Shown here: positions 18,598-29,588 of the stretch, piece after piece
Layout of the letters: each line of letters begins with the position of its first letter
Numbering within the stretch: the first letter of the stretch is position 1
From: an uncultured delta proteobacterium
Lineage (GTDB): Bacteria > Desulfobacterota > Binatia > Binatales > Binataceae
Direction: 5' to 3'
Length of the DNA: 64,000 bases
Assembly (NCBI GenBank): GCA_963711565.1
Contig: CAVQEQ010000003.1
Coordinates: forward strand, 800,001-864,000
Made by a program: the position numbers and the translations under genes
Notes under the pieces: generated by a model
Seen by the model: the letters and a program-made list of their open reading frames with translations, nothing else
The model's database searches: none
Told to the model about the DNA's origin: nothing

Positions 18598-19560
18598 CTA
18601 ACCGCGCATCCGCTCTCTCGGGCCTAGAAATCGATCGCCGTTGTAGTGGATCAGATGTTCTGGGAGATCAGCGATCCAGACCTCAGTGTCCCAAGCGATC
18701 GTGTTGGTATGGCGGCGAAATTCGGTCATGTCCGGGAATGCCGAAACGTAGATCAATCCAGCGGGACAGTTGGCCAGCATCAATTCGAGCTCAAGCACCC
18801 GTTTGCTAGACATCGGCCCATGCGACGTTACGGCCTCGACCAGGAAGAGCCAGTTCCGCTTTTTGTCGTAAATGATCACGTCCGGAAGCTTGTCATGCTC
18901 AGTTATAGGAATGCCGAGCGTCTTCAACATCTGACTATCGACATGGAGGTTCTTCTTCGCCGTATCGCCGAGATACAAGAGTCTGGGGTCTTCGGCGAAG
19001 CGCGTTGCAAATTGTTCAACAATGGCTTTCTGTAGCTCGTTATGCGACCCCGGCGAGAGGTTGACCACTCCTCCATCTGGAAACCGGACTGGAATCAAAC
19101 GTTTTGAACGGCGTCTCTGATAGATCTCGATCAGCGAGGTGCGACCGGACAAAAATTTCGCGAGCGCTGGCTGCCACTGGGACGTTCCGAAGGTCTTGAT
19201 AGCGTTCAGCGCGGCTTCAGATACTGCATAGTGGGAATGGGGACTGTTGGTTGCTAGGTTTGGCTCGAAAGGATTGTGTTCTGCGACTCCCGCGAGAACG
19301 AATTGATGTAAGACTTGGCGGCGTATTGTTTCTCTTGTGTTCGCCGCATACGCGACTCGGTATTTCTTTTCTCGGACGAAGTCCATGATGCCCTTGGTGC
19401 CAGAGCGACGATCACGGCTGGCCTTCGACCAGGCATCATTGACTGCTATTCCGCAGAGGGCCAAAAGCGTAAGGGCAGAAATCTGATTTTGCTGCGATCC
19501 GGGGAGCCCGAACGCTTTTAGAATTGCCTGAGCTTGTGCGATCTTTTCTGACTTTTTCAC
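18598..19560 (-). CDS. BsuBI/PstI-family type II restriction endonuclease
   Basis: YAANTRETIRRQVLHQF, LSPGSHN, HDKLPD, EAVTSHGP, IAWDTEVW, HYNGDRFLGP. Confidence 0.93.
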   Translation of the reverse strand: MKKSEKIAQAQAILKAFGLPGSQQNQISALTLLALCGIAVNDAWSKASRDRRSGTKGIMDFVREKKYRVAYAANTRETIRRQVLHQFVLAGVAEHNPFEPNLATNSPHSHYAVSEAALNAIKTFGTSQWQPALAKFLSGRTSLIEIYQRRRSKRLIPVRFPDGGVVNLSPGSHNELQKAIVEQFATRFAEDPRLLYLGDTAKKNLHVDSQMLKTLGIPITEHDKLPDVIIYDKKRNWLFLVEAVTSHGPMSSKRVLELELMLANCPAGLIYVSAFPDMTEFRRHTNTIAWDTEVWIADLPEHLIHYNGDRFLGPRERMRG

Positions 19561-21128
19561 CGCGCAGTGCCAATAGCCTCCTTGACGATATCGTCCAGGC
19601 TTTCGCCGCCGCTCTGCTTCCTCACGCGTTGTCCGATGAAGACGATCATATCGCGAGGCGGTAGAGGCATCGCGCGCAACTCCGTTGCGCTCACCTGTGT
19701 ATTGCCACTTGATACTCTGAAGTAGGTGTCGAGCAACTCGCTATTGAGAAGCGCGGCCAGCCCCAAAGCTTCGTTCTCGTTCATTTCGTCACGCATCGAA
19801 TATATGTAGTTCAAGTGATTCTCGATCCCGAGCAGTGACCCGGGAACAGAGCCTTTCAGCCAAGGCGCAGCAACTAATCGCCGCGCTTCTTCTTTCGCGC
19901 TGAAGCGTCGGATCAAAACGTAGTTGCGGTTGGGTAGTAGCAGAGATTTTTCGGTCGCGACTGTGCTGATGTATTGAGGTTTGCGCGTCTCAATTGGGAA
20001 GGTTACCTGCATCGCCAGGACGTGGTTCATCCAGATGAGAGGGGCATAGTCGTTCGATGGAACACCAATCTTGTCGATATACTCAGTTGCTCGAAAAGGA
20101 ACGACCGGTCCCGTCGAGATATTCATCTCGTACTGGTGGAGAGAGCCGGTCCACGAATCGACGAGGCGAAGCGCCGCGTCCTCACCCGGCAGAATCGGAA
20201 GGCGGAAGATTTTAGAGCTGCTAGCCATGTCCAGCGCGTCTCTAAGCGGAAGCGATCGGCGATTAAGATGAGCGAGGTCCGCGATACCGGCACTGCCAGT
20301 TATCTCCAGCTCGAAACCTTCGCGACTATGTTGCCATCCGTCGTCCCTGACACCTCTCAGAATAATGCTCTCCTGGAGAACCTCGTCTCGTCCGAAGGCT
20401 TCGCGGCGCGAGCCAAAGACGTGAACCCCCACAGGGCGGATGTTAGCGAAGAACTTTTCTCGAAAGAGCCGGAAGTATGGACCTGATGCGAAACTGCGAG
20501 GTGTTATGAACAGGAACTCTCCCCCCTTTCGTAAGAGGGCCGCGGTCGCCGCCATGAAGAGTGCATAAATGTTCGGCTGTCCATGAACGACGACCATCGC
20601 AGCCTGAGCCCGGGGATCGTCTTTAGAAATCTTGAAGTACGGCGGATTCGCGATAACTAGATCGAAGCACTCCCTCGATTGCGTATCAAACAAGTGACCG
20701 TTGGATCTGAAGCTTCCAGCGTGGGCCAACACGAAGTCCTGCTTTTCGATCCTGACACTCACTTCAACTTGATGCTCTTCGGCCCAGCGCTTGAGACGGT
20801 CCAGGACAGAAGCGAGAGCTTCTTGTAGATCCGGATCTGTCTCGTATGCGGTTAGTTCCACTTTACGCACCCGTGGTTCGGCTATTGCCAAACCCTCAAC
20901 AATCGCGCAGAGAAGAGTGCCGGATCCTGCGGCGGGATCCAGAATTCGGATCTCCGACGCGCTGGTATTTGCTTGCCCGGCAATGAAGTCGGCCACTTCG
21001 ACAGGTGTGAGGTACAGCCCGCCAGCTTTACGCTCGGCGGGAGTTTTGCGCGCTACGATCCCTGCGCCAAGACGGTCCGCAAACCGGCTGGGAAGACTCT
21101 CCCAACTGTGACGCTTATACGAAGCCAC
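19557..21128 (-). CDS. N6-adenine DNA methyltransferase (BsuBI/PstI, Eco57I-like)
   Basis: LDPAAGSG (motif I), ANPPY (motif IV), STGPVVPFR, RRFSAKEE, ENHLN, GNTQVSATEL. Confidence 0.93.
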   Translation of the reverse strand: MASYKRHSWESLPSRFADRLGAGIVARKTPAERKAGGLYLTPVEVADFIAGQANTSASEIRILDPAAGSGTLLCAIVEGLAIAEPRVRKVELTAYETDPDLQEALASVLDRLKRWAEEHQVEVSVRIEKQDFVLAHAGSFRSNGHLFDTQSRECFDLVIANPPYFKISKDDPRAQAAMVVVHGQPNIYALFMAATAALLRKGGEFLFITPRSFASGPYFRLFREKFFANIRPVGVHVFGSRREAFGRDEVLQESIILRGVRDDGWQHSREGFELEITGSAGIADLAHLNRRSLPLRDALDMASSSKIFRLPILPGEDAALRLVDSWTGSLHQYEMNISTGPVVPFRATEYIDKIGVPSNDYAPLIWMNHVLAMQVTFPIETRKPQYISTVATEKSLLLPNRNYVLIRRFSAKEEARRLVAAPWLKGSVPGSLLGIENHLNYIYSMRDEMNENEALGLAALLNSELLDTYFRVSSGNTQVSATELRAMPLPPRDMIVFIGQRVRKQSGGESLDDIVKEAIGTAR

Positions 21129-24255: not shown

Positions 24256-24341
24256 GCCGAGGTGGCGGAATGGCAGACGCAGAGGACTCAAAATCCTCCG
24301 TGGGCAACCACGTGCGGGTTCAAGTCCCGCCCTCGGCACCA
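24256..24341 (+). tRNA. tRNA-Leu(CAA)
   Basis: GCCGAGG/CCTCGGC acceptor stem, GGAATGGCAGAC D-loop, anticodon loop CT-CAA-AA, long variable arm, GTTCAAGTC T-loop, encoded CCA. Confidence 0.96.
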
Positions 24342-24440
24342 ACTTCCGTCAGGCGACTTCTAGGCGACTACTAACCGTTGATTCCTGGCAGCCCTTGCCG
24401 GATGCGGATCTTGTATGAGCTTGACGGTCAGCCCGCACGC

Positions 24441-25166
24441 TTAGCCGACGACAGCAAAAGGAAAATACGGTTCTCCGCTCCTACCGCTATCGATCTGCGG
24501 ATTTTGAGCATAGGCCGTACGTTGCCTTACTACGCTGCGCGCTTTCTCATGAGCAGCCATAATAGACATGACTTGGAGAGCGTTGGGACCCTGAGCTTTC
24601 GCCCAATCAGAACCAGCCGTCATAAGGTGATTCGAATAGTAACCCCCGGTCGAGCTACTTCCGGCAGCTTCTTCGCCAGGACTGCATGCATACGCCTTGA
24701 TAGCAAGTTTAGTGCACCGCTCGATTTCCACGTCGTACATTACCCTACATAGTACGCCATTACGGTTCACGGCCGCTTTGGCTAGAGATTTTAGTAGCAC
24801 ATCTTCTGAGATTTCTGGTGTTCTTTCGACTCTGCAACAGTCAAGAATGATCGTCTGTTTTTTCCCGGTACGCAGGCTGTCCGAATCCAACGTCCCATCT
24901 TCCAGACCTATAAAGGTATCGCGATTAACTTGATCGCCGTGGCCGGCAAACACCACAAGAGAGTAATCTGCACCTTTAAGACGTTGGACGGCGTTCAGAA
25001 CGTCTGCCGTGTCCGGCCGTATCAGTCGTTCGATCTCTTCCGAGTACCAAAACCCTCCATGCTCATGCATCAAGAATGCACAATATTCACGGACGTCGAT
25101 CCGAACGCCGGTTCTGTCTGGCTCATCTTTGCCCGGATGCCCAATTATAAGAGCGCGTCGTTCCAT
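24441..25166 (-). CDS. Caspase-like (peptidase C14) protein
   Basis: RRALIIG, VVFAGHG (His) and IILDCCR (Cys) dyad, ACSPGE, GGYYS. Confidence 0.85.
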   Translation of the reverse strand: MERRALIIGHPGKDEPDRTGVRIDVREYCAFLMHEHGGFWYSEEIERLIRPDTADVLNAVQRLKGADYSLVVFAGHGDQVNRDTFIGLEDGTLDSDSLRTGKKQTIILDCCRVERTPEISEDVLLKSLAKAAVNRNGVLCRVMYDVEIERCTKLAIKAYACSPGEEAAGSSSTGGYYSNHLMTAGSDWAKAQGPNALQVMSIMAAHEKARSVVRQRTAYAQNPQIDSGRSGEPYFPFAVVG

Positions 25167-25184
25167 TCTGTTTTTAATCCTCGG

Positions 25185-25838
25185 CTAGCCTTCAGGGTGT
25201 AACGTCATCTCGTCTCGCAGAAATTCCTCAAGGCGTTCGCCACTAGGTTCGATCGCCGCCCGCGTCTTCCCTTCTTCCCTAGCTTCGCGTTCATAAAACT
25301 CATTGGCGACCCACTCGAATTCAGTGAACGATTGCGGCACATTTCCCTCGCGCTGACGATCGCGTTCGCGGAAAACATACTCCTTGCAGGCCGTCCACCA
25401 GCGAGACGCATGAAAGCCAAACGTGTTCCAAGCTAGCTCCTTGTGAATCAAACCGAGCCGATATAGAATCGCGAATGATTCAAAGAAGTCCATCACCGAC
25501 TCGGTGATCTCGTCGTGATTAGCCTTATCTAAAATCTTGCGTGCTAGGACAGCTCGATGCTTTTCCATCCGCTCGCCATCCCACTTCTCTTCAACCATCA
25601 TGTGCAGTCTGACTGCGAGGTCCGCTCTGAGATCATCTGACTGCTGCCGCATTGCGGTTCGCACATCGCCTGAATGACGTTCTAGTGCCGTCTGCGCGTC
25701 TTGCGCCTGCTGGCTTATGGCAGACTTCGTCGCATTAACTAAAGAACGAGTTAACCGATACAAGCCGAAGGTAGCCCCAGCAAGGACCCAAGTCCCGATT
25801 GCAACCCAGTCGAGTTTACATGCAGATTCGAAATTCAC
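25185..25838 (-). CDS. Membrane-anchored DUF4760-like protein
   Basis: N-terminal TM, coiled coil, MDFFESFAILYRLGLI...FTEFEWV pattern. Confidence 0.65.
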   Translation of the reverse strand: MNFESACKLDWVAIGTWVLAGATFGLYRLTRSLVNATKSAISQQAQDAQTALERHSGDVRTAMRQQSDDLRADLAVRLHMMVEEKWDGERMEKHRAVLARKILDKANHDEITESVMDFFESFAILYRLGLIHKELAWNTFGFHASRWWTACKEYVFRERDRQREGNVPQSFTEFEWVANEFYEREAREEGKTRAAIEPSGERLEEFLRDEMTLHPEG

Positions 25839-25851
25839 CCCTGCTTCCTAT

Positions 25852-26109
25852 CTACGAAACGTCTGTGACTGTCAGGAACACACTGCAGTGATTTTCCCAA
25901 TAGGTGAGGTAGCGCGAGAGCACCATGTATTTATTGGTCTGCCCCACGGCGCCGCCGACATTCTTGCAGTCAACAATATCGCCTACGTTCGGAAGAGGAA
26001 GCGACTGGCCAGCCGCGATTTCCACGGGTTCGTGTATGTCGGGAGATCCCTTCGCTCTGTACTTGACAAAGACGTGGGTATTATCAGTCATAGATTCACC
26101 GCTGCCCAT
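25852..26109 (-). CDS. Small hypothetical protein
   Basis: 85-aa ORF abutting the GrlR-like gene, co-oriented; beta-rich PLPNVGDIV. Confidence 0.6.
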   Translation of the reverse strand: MGSGESMTDNTHVFVKYRAKGSPDIHEPVEIAAGQSLPLPNVGDIVDCKNVGGAVGQTNKYMVLSRYLTYWENHCSVFLTVTDVS

Positions 26110-26436
26110 CTAATCAGCGAGCCGTGTAAGCACCGCTCGAAAAGTAACTCCAGGCACCTCGGTTGCAGTCCCCATCAACTGCGCGGAATCGCCCTGCGAT
26201 GAGCCGGTAAGGGTGATGTTGACTCGGTCTATGCCAAATACCGAAGTCATAAAAGAAGTATTCGTATGGAGATCCACTTTCACACGGGCAGTGACTTGTC
26301 CGCTGCTCTCGTTGAAAGTGCCGACGTAGTAGGTGCGCGAGTCACCACCCCTCACCTTGCCGTCTTGGATTGCCAAGACTCCGACTCCCGACCCTCGTGG
26401 CGTCGAGAAAGCAACTTTATATAGCCCATCTCTCAT
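26110..26436 (-). CDS. GrlR-family (lipocalin-like) protein
   Basis: MRDGLYKVAFSTPRGSGVGV...GGDS..YYVG pattern; GGAGG upstream. Confidence 0.8.
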   Translation of the reverse strand: MRDGLYKVAFSTPRGSGVGVLAIQDGKVRGGDSRTYYVGTFNESSGQVTARVKVDLHTNTSFMTSVFGIDRVNITLTGSSQGDSAQLMGTATEVPGVTFRAVLTRLAD

Positions 26437-26569
26437 CGGCCCTAACCTCCTGCTTTTTCAAATTCTAGCGGATGAGTTCACGGCAATCGAGACAGCGGAC
26501 CAACACGTTGTCAACGGTTGTCAAGCGATTGCCGACCCCGGCGCAGCGCAGGTTTAGCAGGAGTGCATT

Positions 26570-27559
26570 TCACATTAGCCCTTGCCGGATGCGGGCGGAA
26601 AAATCGGGAGAGTCGCCGGCGGCTTTTGCTTTTTCTGTGATGTTGCTCCGCGACCGCAGCTCCGCGAAGGGGATGCTTGTGTCGATCTGGCCGCGCTCAT
26701 AAAGCAGTTCGTCGAGATGTCCGTTTGCCAGCAGCCGCCAGTCGAGACTGCCGCCGGCGCCGATGTTTTGCGCGTGGCCTCGAATCGCCGTCGTACAGTT
26801 CTGCGTCAATGCGTTGTACCACTCCGGATGATCGGCGAGCTGATTCACTTCGTTCAGGTAATCAACCAGCAGCGCGCGCGCCTGCGCGGGAGTAGCGCTG
26901 ATGCGATACAAATAGACCTGCTCACCGCGGTAGTTGGCTCGCAGCCCGACCAGGTCGCGTTCATCGGCGACCACATAGTACAGCTCGTACTGGCGGAAGA
27001 AACCGCGGATCGCGGAATATGATTCGCCCTTCTCCTTGCGCGTCTCAATCGAGATCGCAAGATGCTGACCGTTGTCGAAATCCCAACTGACGATCGTGTG
27101 CGCGATCTCAGTCGGCCCCCAAAACGAGATAAACAGGTCAACGCCTTTGATCCGATCGAGGTCGCAGCTCCGCGTCTCCCAGCGCTGGTCGTAGTCGGAT
27201 TCGGATCGATATTTGAAATTTCGAACGTTCTCGATCGTAACGCGGCTGCCGTCAAAAGTTACGCGCGCTGTGCGGGACACATCGGGCGTCCAGTCGCGCG
27301 CATTGCTCGGCGGAATCAACGTCCACCAAAGCGCGACGACAATCACCGGAAATAACGCGACCACGAGTCCTCGTAGCAGCGGGCGAACGATAGCCGCCAA
27401 AATGATGCTGACGATCGCCAATCCGGCCGCCATCGGCGCCGCCAGCATGCGCGAATGCGGCCCGTCGAACCAGATCGCCATGACGCCCCATGCGACTGCG
27501 GCAACGACGATCACCAACATCACGATCGTCGCGACGATGCGAACTGCGCGCCGGATCAT
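26570..27559 (-). CDS. DUF4105-domain membrane protein
   Basis: NVRNFKY, IAHTIVSW, SIETRKE, YNALTQNCTT; C-terminus altered by the islet. Confidence 0.9.
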   Translation of the reverse strand: MIRRAVRIVATIVMLVIVVAAVAWGVMAIWFDGPHSRMLAAPMAAGLAIVSIILAAIVRPLLRGLVVALFPVIVVALWWTLIPPSNARDWTPDVSRTARVTFDGSRVTIENVRNFKYRSESDYDQRWETRSCDLDRIKGVDLFISFWGPTEIAHTIVSWDFDNGQHLAISIETRKEKGESYSAIRGFFRQYELYYVVADERDLVGLRANYRGEQVYLYRISATPAQARALLVDYLNEVNQLADHPEWYNALTQNCTTAIRGHAQNIGAGGSLDWRLLANGHLDELLYERGQIDTSIPFAELRSRSNITEKAKAAGDSPDFSARIRQGLM

Positions 27560-29469
27560 CAGTGGATTCCGGCGTGCTCGTAGAGGATGCGGCGGACTTC
27601 CTCGATCGTCTGGGGAGTGGCCTGCGTCGAGTGCCCCGAACGCACGACCAGCTCGGATTCGACGCCGTCGATATGCGCGCTCTGGTACTCGACGACGCCG
27701 TCGTTGCCTTCCTCGATCGGACCGCTGCCCTTCACCGGAATGATCGAATGCGCGTGCACGCCGGGCGCGATTGGCAACGAGGAGAGTGCCTTGATGAATC
27801 GGTTGGAGGCATCCATGTTGTCCAGCGCGGTCGGCATCGTAAACGGAGTTCCGATCATGCTGGCCTCGCGCAGGTTACCTAGCGCAACCGCTGACTTGGC
27901 GAGGCTGCCGGGCAGGTTGATGAATTTGTTTCCGAACTTGACGACAGGATTGCCGGCCATGTAGCTGCCGCGATGCGGTGTTGCGATGAAGATCACCTCC
28001 GTCACATATGGCTGCGGCTTGAAGAACATCGCGCGCAAGGCCAGGTCGCGCGTCTCGGGATCGAGATGCGCCTGGTCGAACGGGACCGACGTGACGTTGT
28101 TCCAGAAGCGATTGCCGCTATCGACGACCATCATCTTCGTCAACAGCCCGCCCTGGCTGTGGCCGATCACTACCATCTTGTTGAGCGCGACGTCCTTGCC
28201 CTCGGGATCGACGGCCCTGCGCACAGCCTGCAGAGATTCCCGCAAACGCATTGCGGACAGCACGATCGGATTACCGCTGTTATACATGAAGAACCAAAGC
28301 TGATAGCGCGACGCGATCTTCGGATCGCCCAGCAATTCATTCGTCATCTCCGCCCATCGCGCGGGGCTCGACGCCGTGCCGTGTACGAACACCAGCGGGA
28401 TCATGTTCGGGTGGTATGGATGCAACATGAAGAGCCCGTTGACGTCGTCGCCCTTGCCAACACCCAGAAGAGAGAAGTCTCCCTGGCGAAAGCCGGCGAT
28501 CTCGAAATCCCAAAGCGGCGCGCCTTCCAGCCGATAGGCAAGCGCGGCGCTGGAGTCCGATTCGAGCGGCACCGATTGCGTGCCTACCCGTACGGAATCC
28601 GCCCTGTCCTCGTCGTAGAGCTCGACGGTGCCGTGCAGACGCCCGGTGCTCATCGCGAGGCGCGGATCGTCGAAGCGCACGAACGCGGTCATCGGCACCT
28701 TCGCATTCGCCGGAATCCATCGGCTCGACGGGCTGCCCGGAGTCGGCTCGACTCGAGCCGAGAGCGCCGCACCAATACCAGGCCTGCGGTAGGTGTTGCG
28801 CAGCCCGCGAACCTTCAGGTCTGCGAGCGATACGAAGTTGGTCAGGTGATTTCCGGCGTAGTTGAATCCCTCCGGCTCGACGCCCAAGTTTAGCGACCCG
28901 AATGGCAACCTCAGTTGACGCGCGCTCAGGTCAACTTCCATTCCGTCTTTGGTCGCAAGTCCCAAAGCGATCCCCCGATTGTAAAGGTCAACGGCGAGCC
29001 GCAAGCGCGGGTCGTACGGACCGGGCGCGTCCGCCGGATTGGCAGGAAACAAAAAGGCGTACGCATAGGCGGCGGAGGCCAGGTAGTAGGATTGTTTCCC
29101 GGAGTTTTCCGCGTACGCAAATGACAGCTCGGACAGCGCGAACAAGCGATCGCGTTCGTCAGGTTTGCCGAGTCCCGAATTCAACTCGGCAAGTACCGCT
29201 TGCGGATCGCTTTTGAAGCGATCGATAAGCGCGGTCCGCTCCAGGATCTGCATCGAGTAGGCGCTCGGTTTGTCGGTCGAAAGAACGTTCGCATTCAACT
29301 CGCGATGCGCTGTCTGTTCGTTGAGGCGCGTGACTCCGACCGGTGTGGCGCAACCGCTGCTGAATAGAACTGCGAACGCAAGTACTGCAGTCCAGATGCC
29401 AGTCAACGGGCGTGCCCGTTCCGGCGCGCTGGAGATCACCGTAGCGTTTGAAACCAACTGAGTTCTCAT
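27559..29469 (-). CDS. Alpha/beta hydrolase lipoprotein
   Basis: FSSGC lipobox, FVHGTASS, GHSQGG, TPHRGS, DGVV, SGHS. Confidence 0.88.
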   Translation of the reverse strand: MRTQLVSNATVISSAPERARPLTGIWTAVLAFAVLFSSGCATPVGVTRLNEQTAHRELNANVLSTDKPSAYSMQILERTALIDRFKSDPQAVLAELNSGLGKPDERDRLFALSELSFAYAENSGKQSYYLASAAYAYAFLFPANPADAPGPYDPRLRLAVDLYNRGIALGLATKDGMEVDLSARQLRLPFGSLNLGVEPEGFNYAGNHLTNFVSLADLKVRGLRNTYRRPGIGAALSARVEPTPGSPSSRWIPANAKVPMTAFVRFDDPRLAMSTGRLHGTVELYDEDRADSVRVGTQSVPLESDSSAALAYRLEGAPLWDFEIAGFRQGDFSLLGVGKGDDVNGLFMLHPYHPNMIPLVFVHGTASSPARWAEMTNELLGDPKIASRYQLWFFMYNSGNPIVLSAMRLRESLQAVRRAVDPEGKDVALNKMVVIGHSQGGLLTKMMVVDSGNRFWNNVTSVPFDQAHLDPETRDLALRAMFFKPQPYVTEVIFIATPHRGSYMAGNPVVKFGNKFINLPGSLAKSAVALGNLREASMIGTPFTMPTALDNMDASNRFIKALSSLPIAPGVHAHSIIPVKGSGPIEEGNDGVVEYQSAHIDGVESELVVRSGHSTQATPQTIEEVRRILYEHAGIH

Positions 29470-29588
29470 TGAGCGTCTTACAGCGAATTCCGGACCGCTC
29501 AACTATGCACGATTTTGAGTTCCCCAGATAACGCGGTGCCCGAGCAACTTTCTAGGCTCGCAGCCTGCGGGTTGCCCATACTTGGGGG

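Follow-up and report, generated by a model that had tools for sequence, protein, structure and literature searches.

A caspase-carrying block between tRNA-Leu and an Lnb_N gene in a Binataceae genome: probable patchwork of two alleles at an integration hotspot

Introduction

When the end of a protein gene is repeated exactly on the far side of foreign DNA that holds no integrase, is the repeat the core at which an element recombined? The question is raised by a locus in a 64,000-nucleotide stretch of DNA (the window; positions 800,001 to 864,000 of contig CAVQEQ010000003.1, assembly GCA_963711565.1) from an uncultured delta proteobacterium of the Binataceae. There, four genes lie between a tRNA-Leu(CAA) gene and an intact gene of the Lnb_N/DUF4105 family, and 18 bp of the Lnb_N gene occur on both sides of them. 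The initial annotation saw a DNA circle that had recombined at an 18-bp core inside the protein gene rather than at the adjacent tRNA gene, leaving the gene with a short new end and displacing the old one. We consider a patchwork allele the probable explanation: an incoming segment anchored at the tRNA gene, and carrying its donor's 37-bp Lnb_N stump, would have replaced most of a resident membrane gene. The 18-bp repeat is then likely a stretch in which two alleles overlap, not a core for recombination.

All coordinates are window positions, and the window's genome (G000) is an assembly of 4.84 Mb in four contigs. One protein matched at 97% identity is labelled Candidatus Binatus sp. in its source, and G000 is assigned to that genus accordingly. 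The comparison set comprised 47 genomes of the genus, 33 of which, G000 included, have the Lnb_N gene; the DNA downstream of this gene was compared in the 32 relatives, in stretches of between 190 bp and 46 kb. Lnb_N protein ends were read among the best 120 of 891 matches. Seven public soil or metagenome runs (X1 to X7) were examined as assembled contigs, which drop rare variants; X4 and X5 are two soil runs from one study, and X7 comes from another. The exact 18-mer was present at at least 123 metagenome and viral loci (at least 118, plus 5).

Results

Our first question was whether the repeat is real and what the distal copy represents. The 18-mer is exact at both 24390-24407 and 26577-26594. 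The proximal copy (26577..26594, minus strand) sits within the intact Lnb_N gene (26570..27559, minus strand; 329 amino acids; PF13387, E-value 6e-43), whose C-terminus is RIRQGLM*, as in the nearest alleles. The distal copy belongs to a 37-bp Lnb_N 3' stump (24371..24407, minus strand) that reads RIRQGLPGING*, with its TAG stop at 24371-24373; the shared 18 bp (24390-24407) are followed by a 19-bp tail of ancestral type. These readings, as well as the closeness of the distal tail to the tRNA gene, agree with the initial annotation. Sixteen of the 19 tail nucleotides match the tails of both G044 and G043, and Lnb_N tails in relatives include PGISG*, PGISS*, PGMSG* and PGIRR*. PGING itself ends two of the best 120 proteins, P0173 and P0225 (86.6% and 80.9% identity). 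By its sequence, the distal piece comes from the 3' end of a real Lnb_N gene. The odds of the 18-mer recurring by chance in 2.2 kb are about 5e-8. As G000 holds only two copies at up to one mismatch (two at zero and at one mismatch, five at two mismatches, over the whole 4.84 Mb), the 18-mer is not a dispersed repeat, an identity that the initial annotation had named as fatal to its reading and that this count rules out. Exact repeats of at least 18 bp spaced 0.5-5 kb apart are common in G000 (496), so certainty of homology rests on the in-frame tail.

The same abundance of short exact repeats, together with the four-contig state of the assembly, is what could be said for an assembly artefact or a chance repeat. 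We find this barely credible, as the tail matches natural proteins and a single X1 contig covers 24301-27679, both 18-mers included, with 22 differences that lie mostly in Lnb_N. Since this contig spans both copies, the arrangement is not an artefact; it is real and present in another strain. Pieces from X4 (24342-24492) and X3 (25941-26648) match the window with no differences.

The DNA between the repeats is foreign by its composition. The block (24408..26519, 2,112 bp) consists of four co-oriented genes with a GC content of 52.3% against ~61% for the genome, and GC at third codon positions is 0.48-0.64 in these genes compared with 0.70-0.76 in flanking genes. Domain searches found no integrase or resolvase within it. 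That the islet is foreign and integrase-less therefore stands as annotated. No transposase was found in the block either, and it is single copy in G000. Its ends form no terminal inverted repeats (6 of 20 terminal bases match), and the gene stops fall 33 and 19 bp from the two 18-bp repeats. We rejected an insertion sequence, a miniature inverted-repeat transposable element or another non-autonomous transposon with a long duplication, given the lack of inverted ends, of a transposase and of further genome copies. A direct repeat of the target gene's end is present at both block borders, as in an integrative element.

The true right edge of the block is not at the proximal 18-mer. With 26490-26580 as the query, the matches in G045 and G014 begin exactly at 26520 and stop at 26558, and 26520..26557 (plus strand) is a 38-bp 3' stump, stop codon included, of a spermidine-synthase-like membrane gene of 765 amino acids. 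Identity over the stump is 33/38 nucleotides to G045 and 29/38 to G009 and G044; just upstream it falls to 9-10/52. The full gene (PF01564 spermidine-synthase domain on the G009 copy) is present in 13 of the 47 genus genomes and was not found elsewhere in G000. The foreign block is thus bounded by two gene stumps, Lnb_N on the left and the membrane gene on the right. In different Binatus genomes the membrane gene is low in GC and lies at unrelated sites (L215-L221); in G046 (L220:4686-6980) it begins 192 bp behind tRNA-Met. An 8-bp direct repeat at 10-bp spacing (26506-26524) straddles the 26519/26520 junction, and 14 bp of this region recur in opposite orientation upstream of the G049 homologue of the 108-amino-acid gene described below. 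The short repeats of 26506-26524 and of the spacer beside the tRNA gene do not recur in G000 or in the compared loci.

We then asked whether the short GLM* end depends on the block. Among the best 120 of 891 proteins, GLM* closes each of the six nearest Lnb_N alleles (96.7-99.1% identity), and GLI* the two that come after them (91.8-93.0%). Contigs in X4 and X5 match the tRNA gene up to 24342 and rejoin the window at 26520, with 24343-26519 replaced; both the PGING* stump and the four genes are therefore missing from them. They keep 57 bp beyond the Lnb_N end, and the X5 contig covers 26520-26695 with one difference. The intervening segment is 2,451 bp in both (3,166 - 645 - 70 and 2,701 - 176 - 74). 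A contig from X7, 93.5% identical, also spans 26537-26980. In X4 and X5 the alternative contigs have depths of 11.1 and 7.1, compared with ~1.5-3.3 for block pieces in the same runs, and contig depth here is no measure of the share of cells. GLM* does not depend on the four-gene block; a short end confined to element-bearing alleles is not what these data show. The claim that the block made GLM* by one crossover at the 18-bp core is not supported, given these alleles and the right edge at 26520. Of the displaced C-terminus, the part that holds is that the piece is a genuine Lnb_N end; that this block displaced it does not follow, GLM* occurring without it. As a candidate, GLM* may be a point-mutated native tail like those of G013 and G051, whose stops fall at the same codon, with a best fit of 9/19 nucleotides.

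From its size and the 38-bp stump, the 2,451-bp segment of X4 and X5 would be the membrane gene. If it holds that gene, the leader behind the tRNA gene is 2,451 + 38 - 2,298, or ~191 bp, which compares with the 192 bp in G046.

The left edge of the variable segment is the tRNA-Leu(CAA) gene itself (24256..24341, plus strand), after which, beyond 24342, X4 and X5 diverge. Between its convergent end at 24341 and the stop of the distal stump there are 29 bases. This spacer (24342..24370) contains an 8-bp direct repeat at 11-bp spacing and is close in length to that of empty tRNA-Leu/Lnb_N sites (30-38 bp). Such empty sites, which the initial annotation had proposed to look for, do exist: they occur in four of the 32 relatives (G043, G045, G059 and G061; tRNA 32-38 bp after the stop), and in metagenome locus L174, where the 18-mer is identical, the tail reads PEIPGS* and the full tRNA gene follows 30 bp on. 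In 17 of the 32 relatives the tRNA or a fragment of it lies downstream of Lnb_N, 30 bp to 46 kb off and with unrelated cargo between. Five of the 32 have 3' tRNA fragments of 51-58 bp, and in G001, G013 and G049 a tyrosine integrase stands beside the fragment. The tRNA-Leu gene is therefore a proven integrase target and an integration hotspot in this genus, which speaks against the choice of a core in the protein gene over the tRNA gene. The flanks here are conserved and enclose alternative, unrelated segments, the pattern of an integrase-free hotspot. An island of the tRNA-gene type would show a displaced tRNA fragment and an integrase; the window allele has neither.

Several segments at or near this site are worth describing in their own right. 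L026 (G049:C11:139000-158950) is an 18.5-kb mobilisable element at tRNA-Leu(CAA) with a 55-bp duplication of the attachment (att) site; it carries a tyrosine integrase, a TrwC relaxase, TrwB and RHS genes, and related integrases occur in G001 (89%) and G013 (75%). In L048 (G009:C6:131400-149000) an ATP synthase operon lies between Lnb_N and tRNA-Leu, along with a COX1-family gene and a gene for a molybdopterin oxidoreductase. Elsewhere in G000 (G000:C3:301543-302223), 40 bp match the 5' portion of tRNA-Leu at 90% identity, beside a weak match to the N-terminal region of a tyrosine integrase. About 3 kb from the tRNA gene, 18598-21128 (minus strand) is a low-GC type II pair of a BsuBI/PstI-like endonuclease and an Eco57I-type methyltransferase.

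G041 has a comparable remnant. A 66-bp Lnb_N stump (~127654-127720 of G041:C22, L079) lies 31 kb upstream of the intact gene, matches the G050 allele at 60/66 positions and its own at 55/66, and has a different breakpoint from the window. It stands beside methylase and small-terminase (phage-type) genes and leads into the DNA found after Lnb_N in G050. It might be imagined that an undescribed recombinase or capture process repeatedly targets the last codons of Lnb_N/DUF4105 genes and supplies a new short C-terminus, the window repeat and the G041 stump being its footprints and a standalone-caspase defence unit its cargo; we hold this to be quite improbable. No report linking DUF4105 to integration was found in the literature searched, mostly without subscription journals.

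The G041 stump by phage-type genes could also be a second junction of the kind required by one ancient insertion at the 18-bp core, made before GLM* and GLI* split, in which the element supplied the short C-terminus. That element would have been larger, bounded by the membrane gene on one side and by the caspase block on the other; the window lineage would later have lost most of the membrane gene, and the X4/X5 lineage the stump and the four genes. One event would explain both the perfect repeat and the nearby breakpoints. The distal tail is of ancestral type while the proximal 19 nucleotides fit the tail of no relative well (best 9/19 among the 32), and identical 18-mer sites exist in L174 and G001. 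What keeps weight behind this reading is that alleles are otherwise seldom identical over these bases (3 of 528 genome pairs). It asks, however, that a non-coding copy hold 18/18 through 7-8% protein divergence and that two extra deletions occurred, one stopping at the 3' end of the tRNA gene. Inverted repeats are missing from the block's ends, which also leave scant room for att arms, and the 18-mer region, at a mean of 4.3 mismatches between genomes, makes a poor conserved target. In none of the 32 relatives is the Lnb_N end repeated downstream (longest exact repeats 12-13 bp) or the site occupied with flanking repeats. No second copy, as on a circle, appeared among the at least 123 metagenome and viral loci, of which four were flagged (three in Lnb_N genes, one chance-like), and no join between the two 18-mers, as at an empty site or in a circle, was found in the contigs of the seven runs, from which rare variants drop out. 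G000 has nine PF00589 and one PF00239 recombinase matches elsewhere, and no exact or one-mismatch 18-mer lies within 30 kb of these 10 genes; no integrase of the kind sought beside further 18-mer copies was found, though one may have acted in trans. Overall we think an old insertion unlikely, if far from negligible.

An unsampled PGING* allele and the GLM* allele might also have met within the species. Unequal recombination between them would give a brief Lnb_N duplication, the caspase block would replace the inner copy, and two stumps would be left. Here the exact 18-bp identity comes free. Lnb_N differences are clustered among the runs, and this clustering, which suggests active recombination among strains, would suit the idea, as would an X3 contig that joins 24341 to 26580 across an intervening stretch. 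That contig is short, of low depth and maybe from another species, and the PGING end occurs in no allele above 87% identity among the best 120 of 891. We judge this scenario improbable.

We return to the patchwork allele. In a first step, the resident allele would have consisted of the tRNA gene, ~190 bp, the 765-amino-acid spermidine-synthase-like gene and an Lnb_N gene ending GLM*. A haplotype that agrees from 26520 on and has 2,451 other bases after the tRNA gene is observed; that these bases hold the membrane gene we infer. The second step would be a donor with a PGING* end, in which prophage-type cargo had joined Lnb_N 37 bp ahead of its stop. Third, the donor segment would have entered at the tRNA gene. 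It may have recombined through homology in and upstream of the tRNA, with an illegitimate junction on the right at 26519/26520, or it may have been a tRNA-Leu integrative element whose integrase end was deleted after integration. By itself the block can probably no longer move, and homologous recombination of the flanks would spread it between strains.

This account is favoured because GL[M/I]* ends 8/8 of the nearest proteins, with PGING only at the lower identities given above; because X4 and X5 jump from 24342 to 26520, with the X7 contig alongside; and because 26520-26557 ends a membrane gene otherwise missing from G000, with leader sizes of 191 and 192 bp. The left break coincides with the 3' end of the tRNA gene, a place at which att fragments and integrases are found in relatives; varied cargo separates Lnb_N from the tRNA in 17/32 relatives, and G041 has an independent stump at another breakpoint. 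The lack of terminal inverted repeats and the distances of 33 and 19 bp between gene stops and repeats also speak for it. Finally, block pieces in the seven runs differ from the window at 0-2 positions, while Lnb_N differs at ~20 sites in X1, which fits a recent arrival or sweep. Since close relatives carry the same short end without the four genes, ordinary patchwork swaps at a hotspot are the likely cause.

Several points weigh on the other side. The account requires a coincidental identity of 18 bases or a very close donor, one that was not found: no donor with the stump-caspase junction turned up among the relatives or the class and phylum genomes sampled, and 18-base identity, seen in 3 of 528 pairs, is shared with G000 by 1 of the 32 relatives. 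There is no tRNA fragment near 26520 in G000 and no close G000 homologue of the G049 tRNA-Leu integrase (best 27%). Five of the six GLM* proteins are known by protein sequence alone, and P0166, one of the six, appears to derive from the islet-bearing X1 contig. The 2,451-bp segment is known by its length, its content being deduced, and the X4 and X5 haplotypes both come from a single study.

The cargo begins, next to the Lnb_N stump, with a standalone caspase-like protease of 241 amino acids (24441..25166, minus strand; PF00656, E-value 1.6e-17). His76 and Cys110 are unchanged across 11 aligned homologues, and the predicted model (pLDDT, the predicted local distance difference test, 86) matches the fold of caspase and MALT1. 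With this His-Cys dyad and the modelled caspase fold, the protein qualifies as a Peptidase_C14 member. The family is large (568 clusters at E<1e-30), with nearly all best matches ~240-260 amino acids long; it was not found in the 150 class and 400 phylum genomes sampled or in the viral contigs searched. By sequence there was no match in the PDB, and PADLOC and NCBIfam gave only sub-threshold caspase matches. Homologues in two other hosts adjoin restriction-type, AAA, Shedu and helicase genes, and by this analogy the caspase is likely anti-phage or other defence cargo.

The second gene encodes a DUF4760 protein (25185..25838, minus strand; 217 amino acids; PF15956, E-value 5e-9). The family is present in 17 of the 47 genus genomes, and one homologue lies in a G049 prophage beside a tyrosine integrase. 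A second DUF4760 gene of G000 is ~9 kb from a tyrosine integrase (G000:C3:1014182-1023636). At 25752-25753, four of four runs compared differ from the window; the window may be in error here or may carry a private variant. The third gene (25852..26109, minus strand) encodes an 85-amino-acid protein of no assigned family, with a partial 77% homologue in G042 and no Pfam match. The fourth (26110..26436, minus strand) encodes a 108-amino-acid protein that matches phrog_2483 (E-value 1.6e-5) and has an 85% homologue immediately next to a prophage integrase in G049. A GrlR-like identity is a lead from language-model features only (Atlas 0.98 to GrlR clusters at a low recognition score), and PF16518 gave no match. 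None of the relatives has the whole block, and the genus genomes and the 150 class and 400 phylum genomes sampled gave no evidence of a conserved four-gene system. A caspase-DUF4760 pairing suspected in L222 was dropped, the partial open reading frame there having neither a Pfam match nor BLAST similarity. Promoter and terminator scans of the block came out near shuffle level. On the host flank, upstream of Lnb_N, lies an alpha/beta-hydrolase-like gene (27559..29502, minus strand) with weak Pfam matches below cut-off, syntenic in G041.

Discussion

The locus is a further tRNA-side hotspot, this one from a soil genus that has received little study, and two of its alleles coexist in the same samples. 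A caution goes with it: a short perfect repeat and a seemingly displaced gene end can reflect overlapping alleles, not an att site or a target duplication. The most noteworthy part is the cargo, a standalone 241-amino-acid caspase from a large family, with defence-type neighbours in two other hosts and no TIR partner. No report of genomic islands in Binatus was found in the literature searched, mostly without subscription journals.

How does the locus compare with known systems? Some elements integrate into the 3' ends of protein genes and restore them (prfC, guaA, trmE). As with those, a short direct repeat of the gene end flanks foreign DNA and the gene is intact; unlike them, the locus has no integrase and no target conserved across relatives, and the short end is found without the block. 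Type IV Thoeris, a TIR-caspase system (bioRxiv 10.1101/2024.10.24.620036), likewise places a caspase-like protease in horizontally acquired DNA. The block, in contrast, has no TIR gene, and the Peptidase_C14 match spans residues 3-227 of 241, so there is no room for an extra C-terminal domain of the Thoeris type. By the Islander criteria for genomic islands integrated in tRNA genes (PMC4383910), the variable DNA does start at the tRNA 3' end, and G001, G013 and G049 hold proper islands there, whereas the window allele has neither integrase nor displaced tRNA fragment. In 'dimorphic loci', segments are replaced by homology-assisted illegitimate recombination (PMC2884548); the present locus resembles them in having two alternative segments, one end of which may be anchored by homology and the other of which is sharp within a gene. 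Hotspots of horizontal gene transfer without recognisable mobile elements, diversified by recombination of their flanks (Oliveira et al. 2017, PMC5635113), share with it fixed flanks (here tRNA-Leu and Lnb_N), fast turnover of unrelated cargo, the lack of an integrase and signs of recombination in the flanking gene. They differ in that here both junctions lie inside gene 3' ends and leave stumps. The locus is likely an instance of ordinary hotspot turnover, of a known kind.

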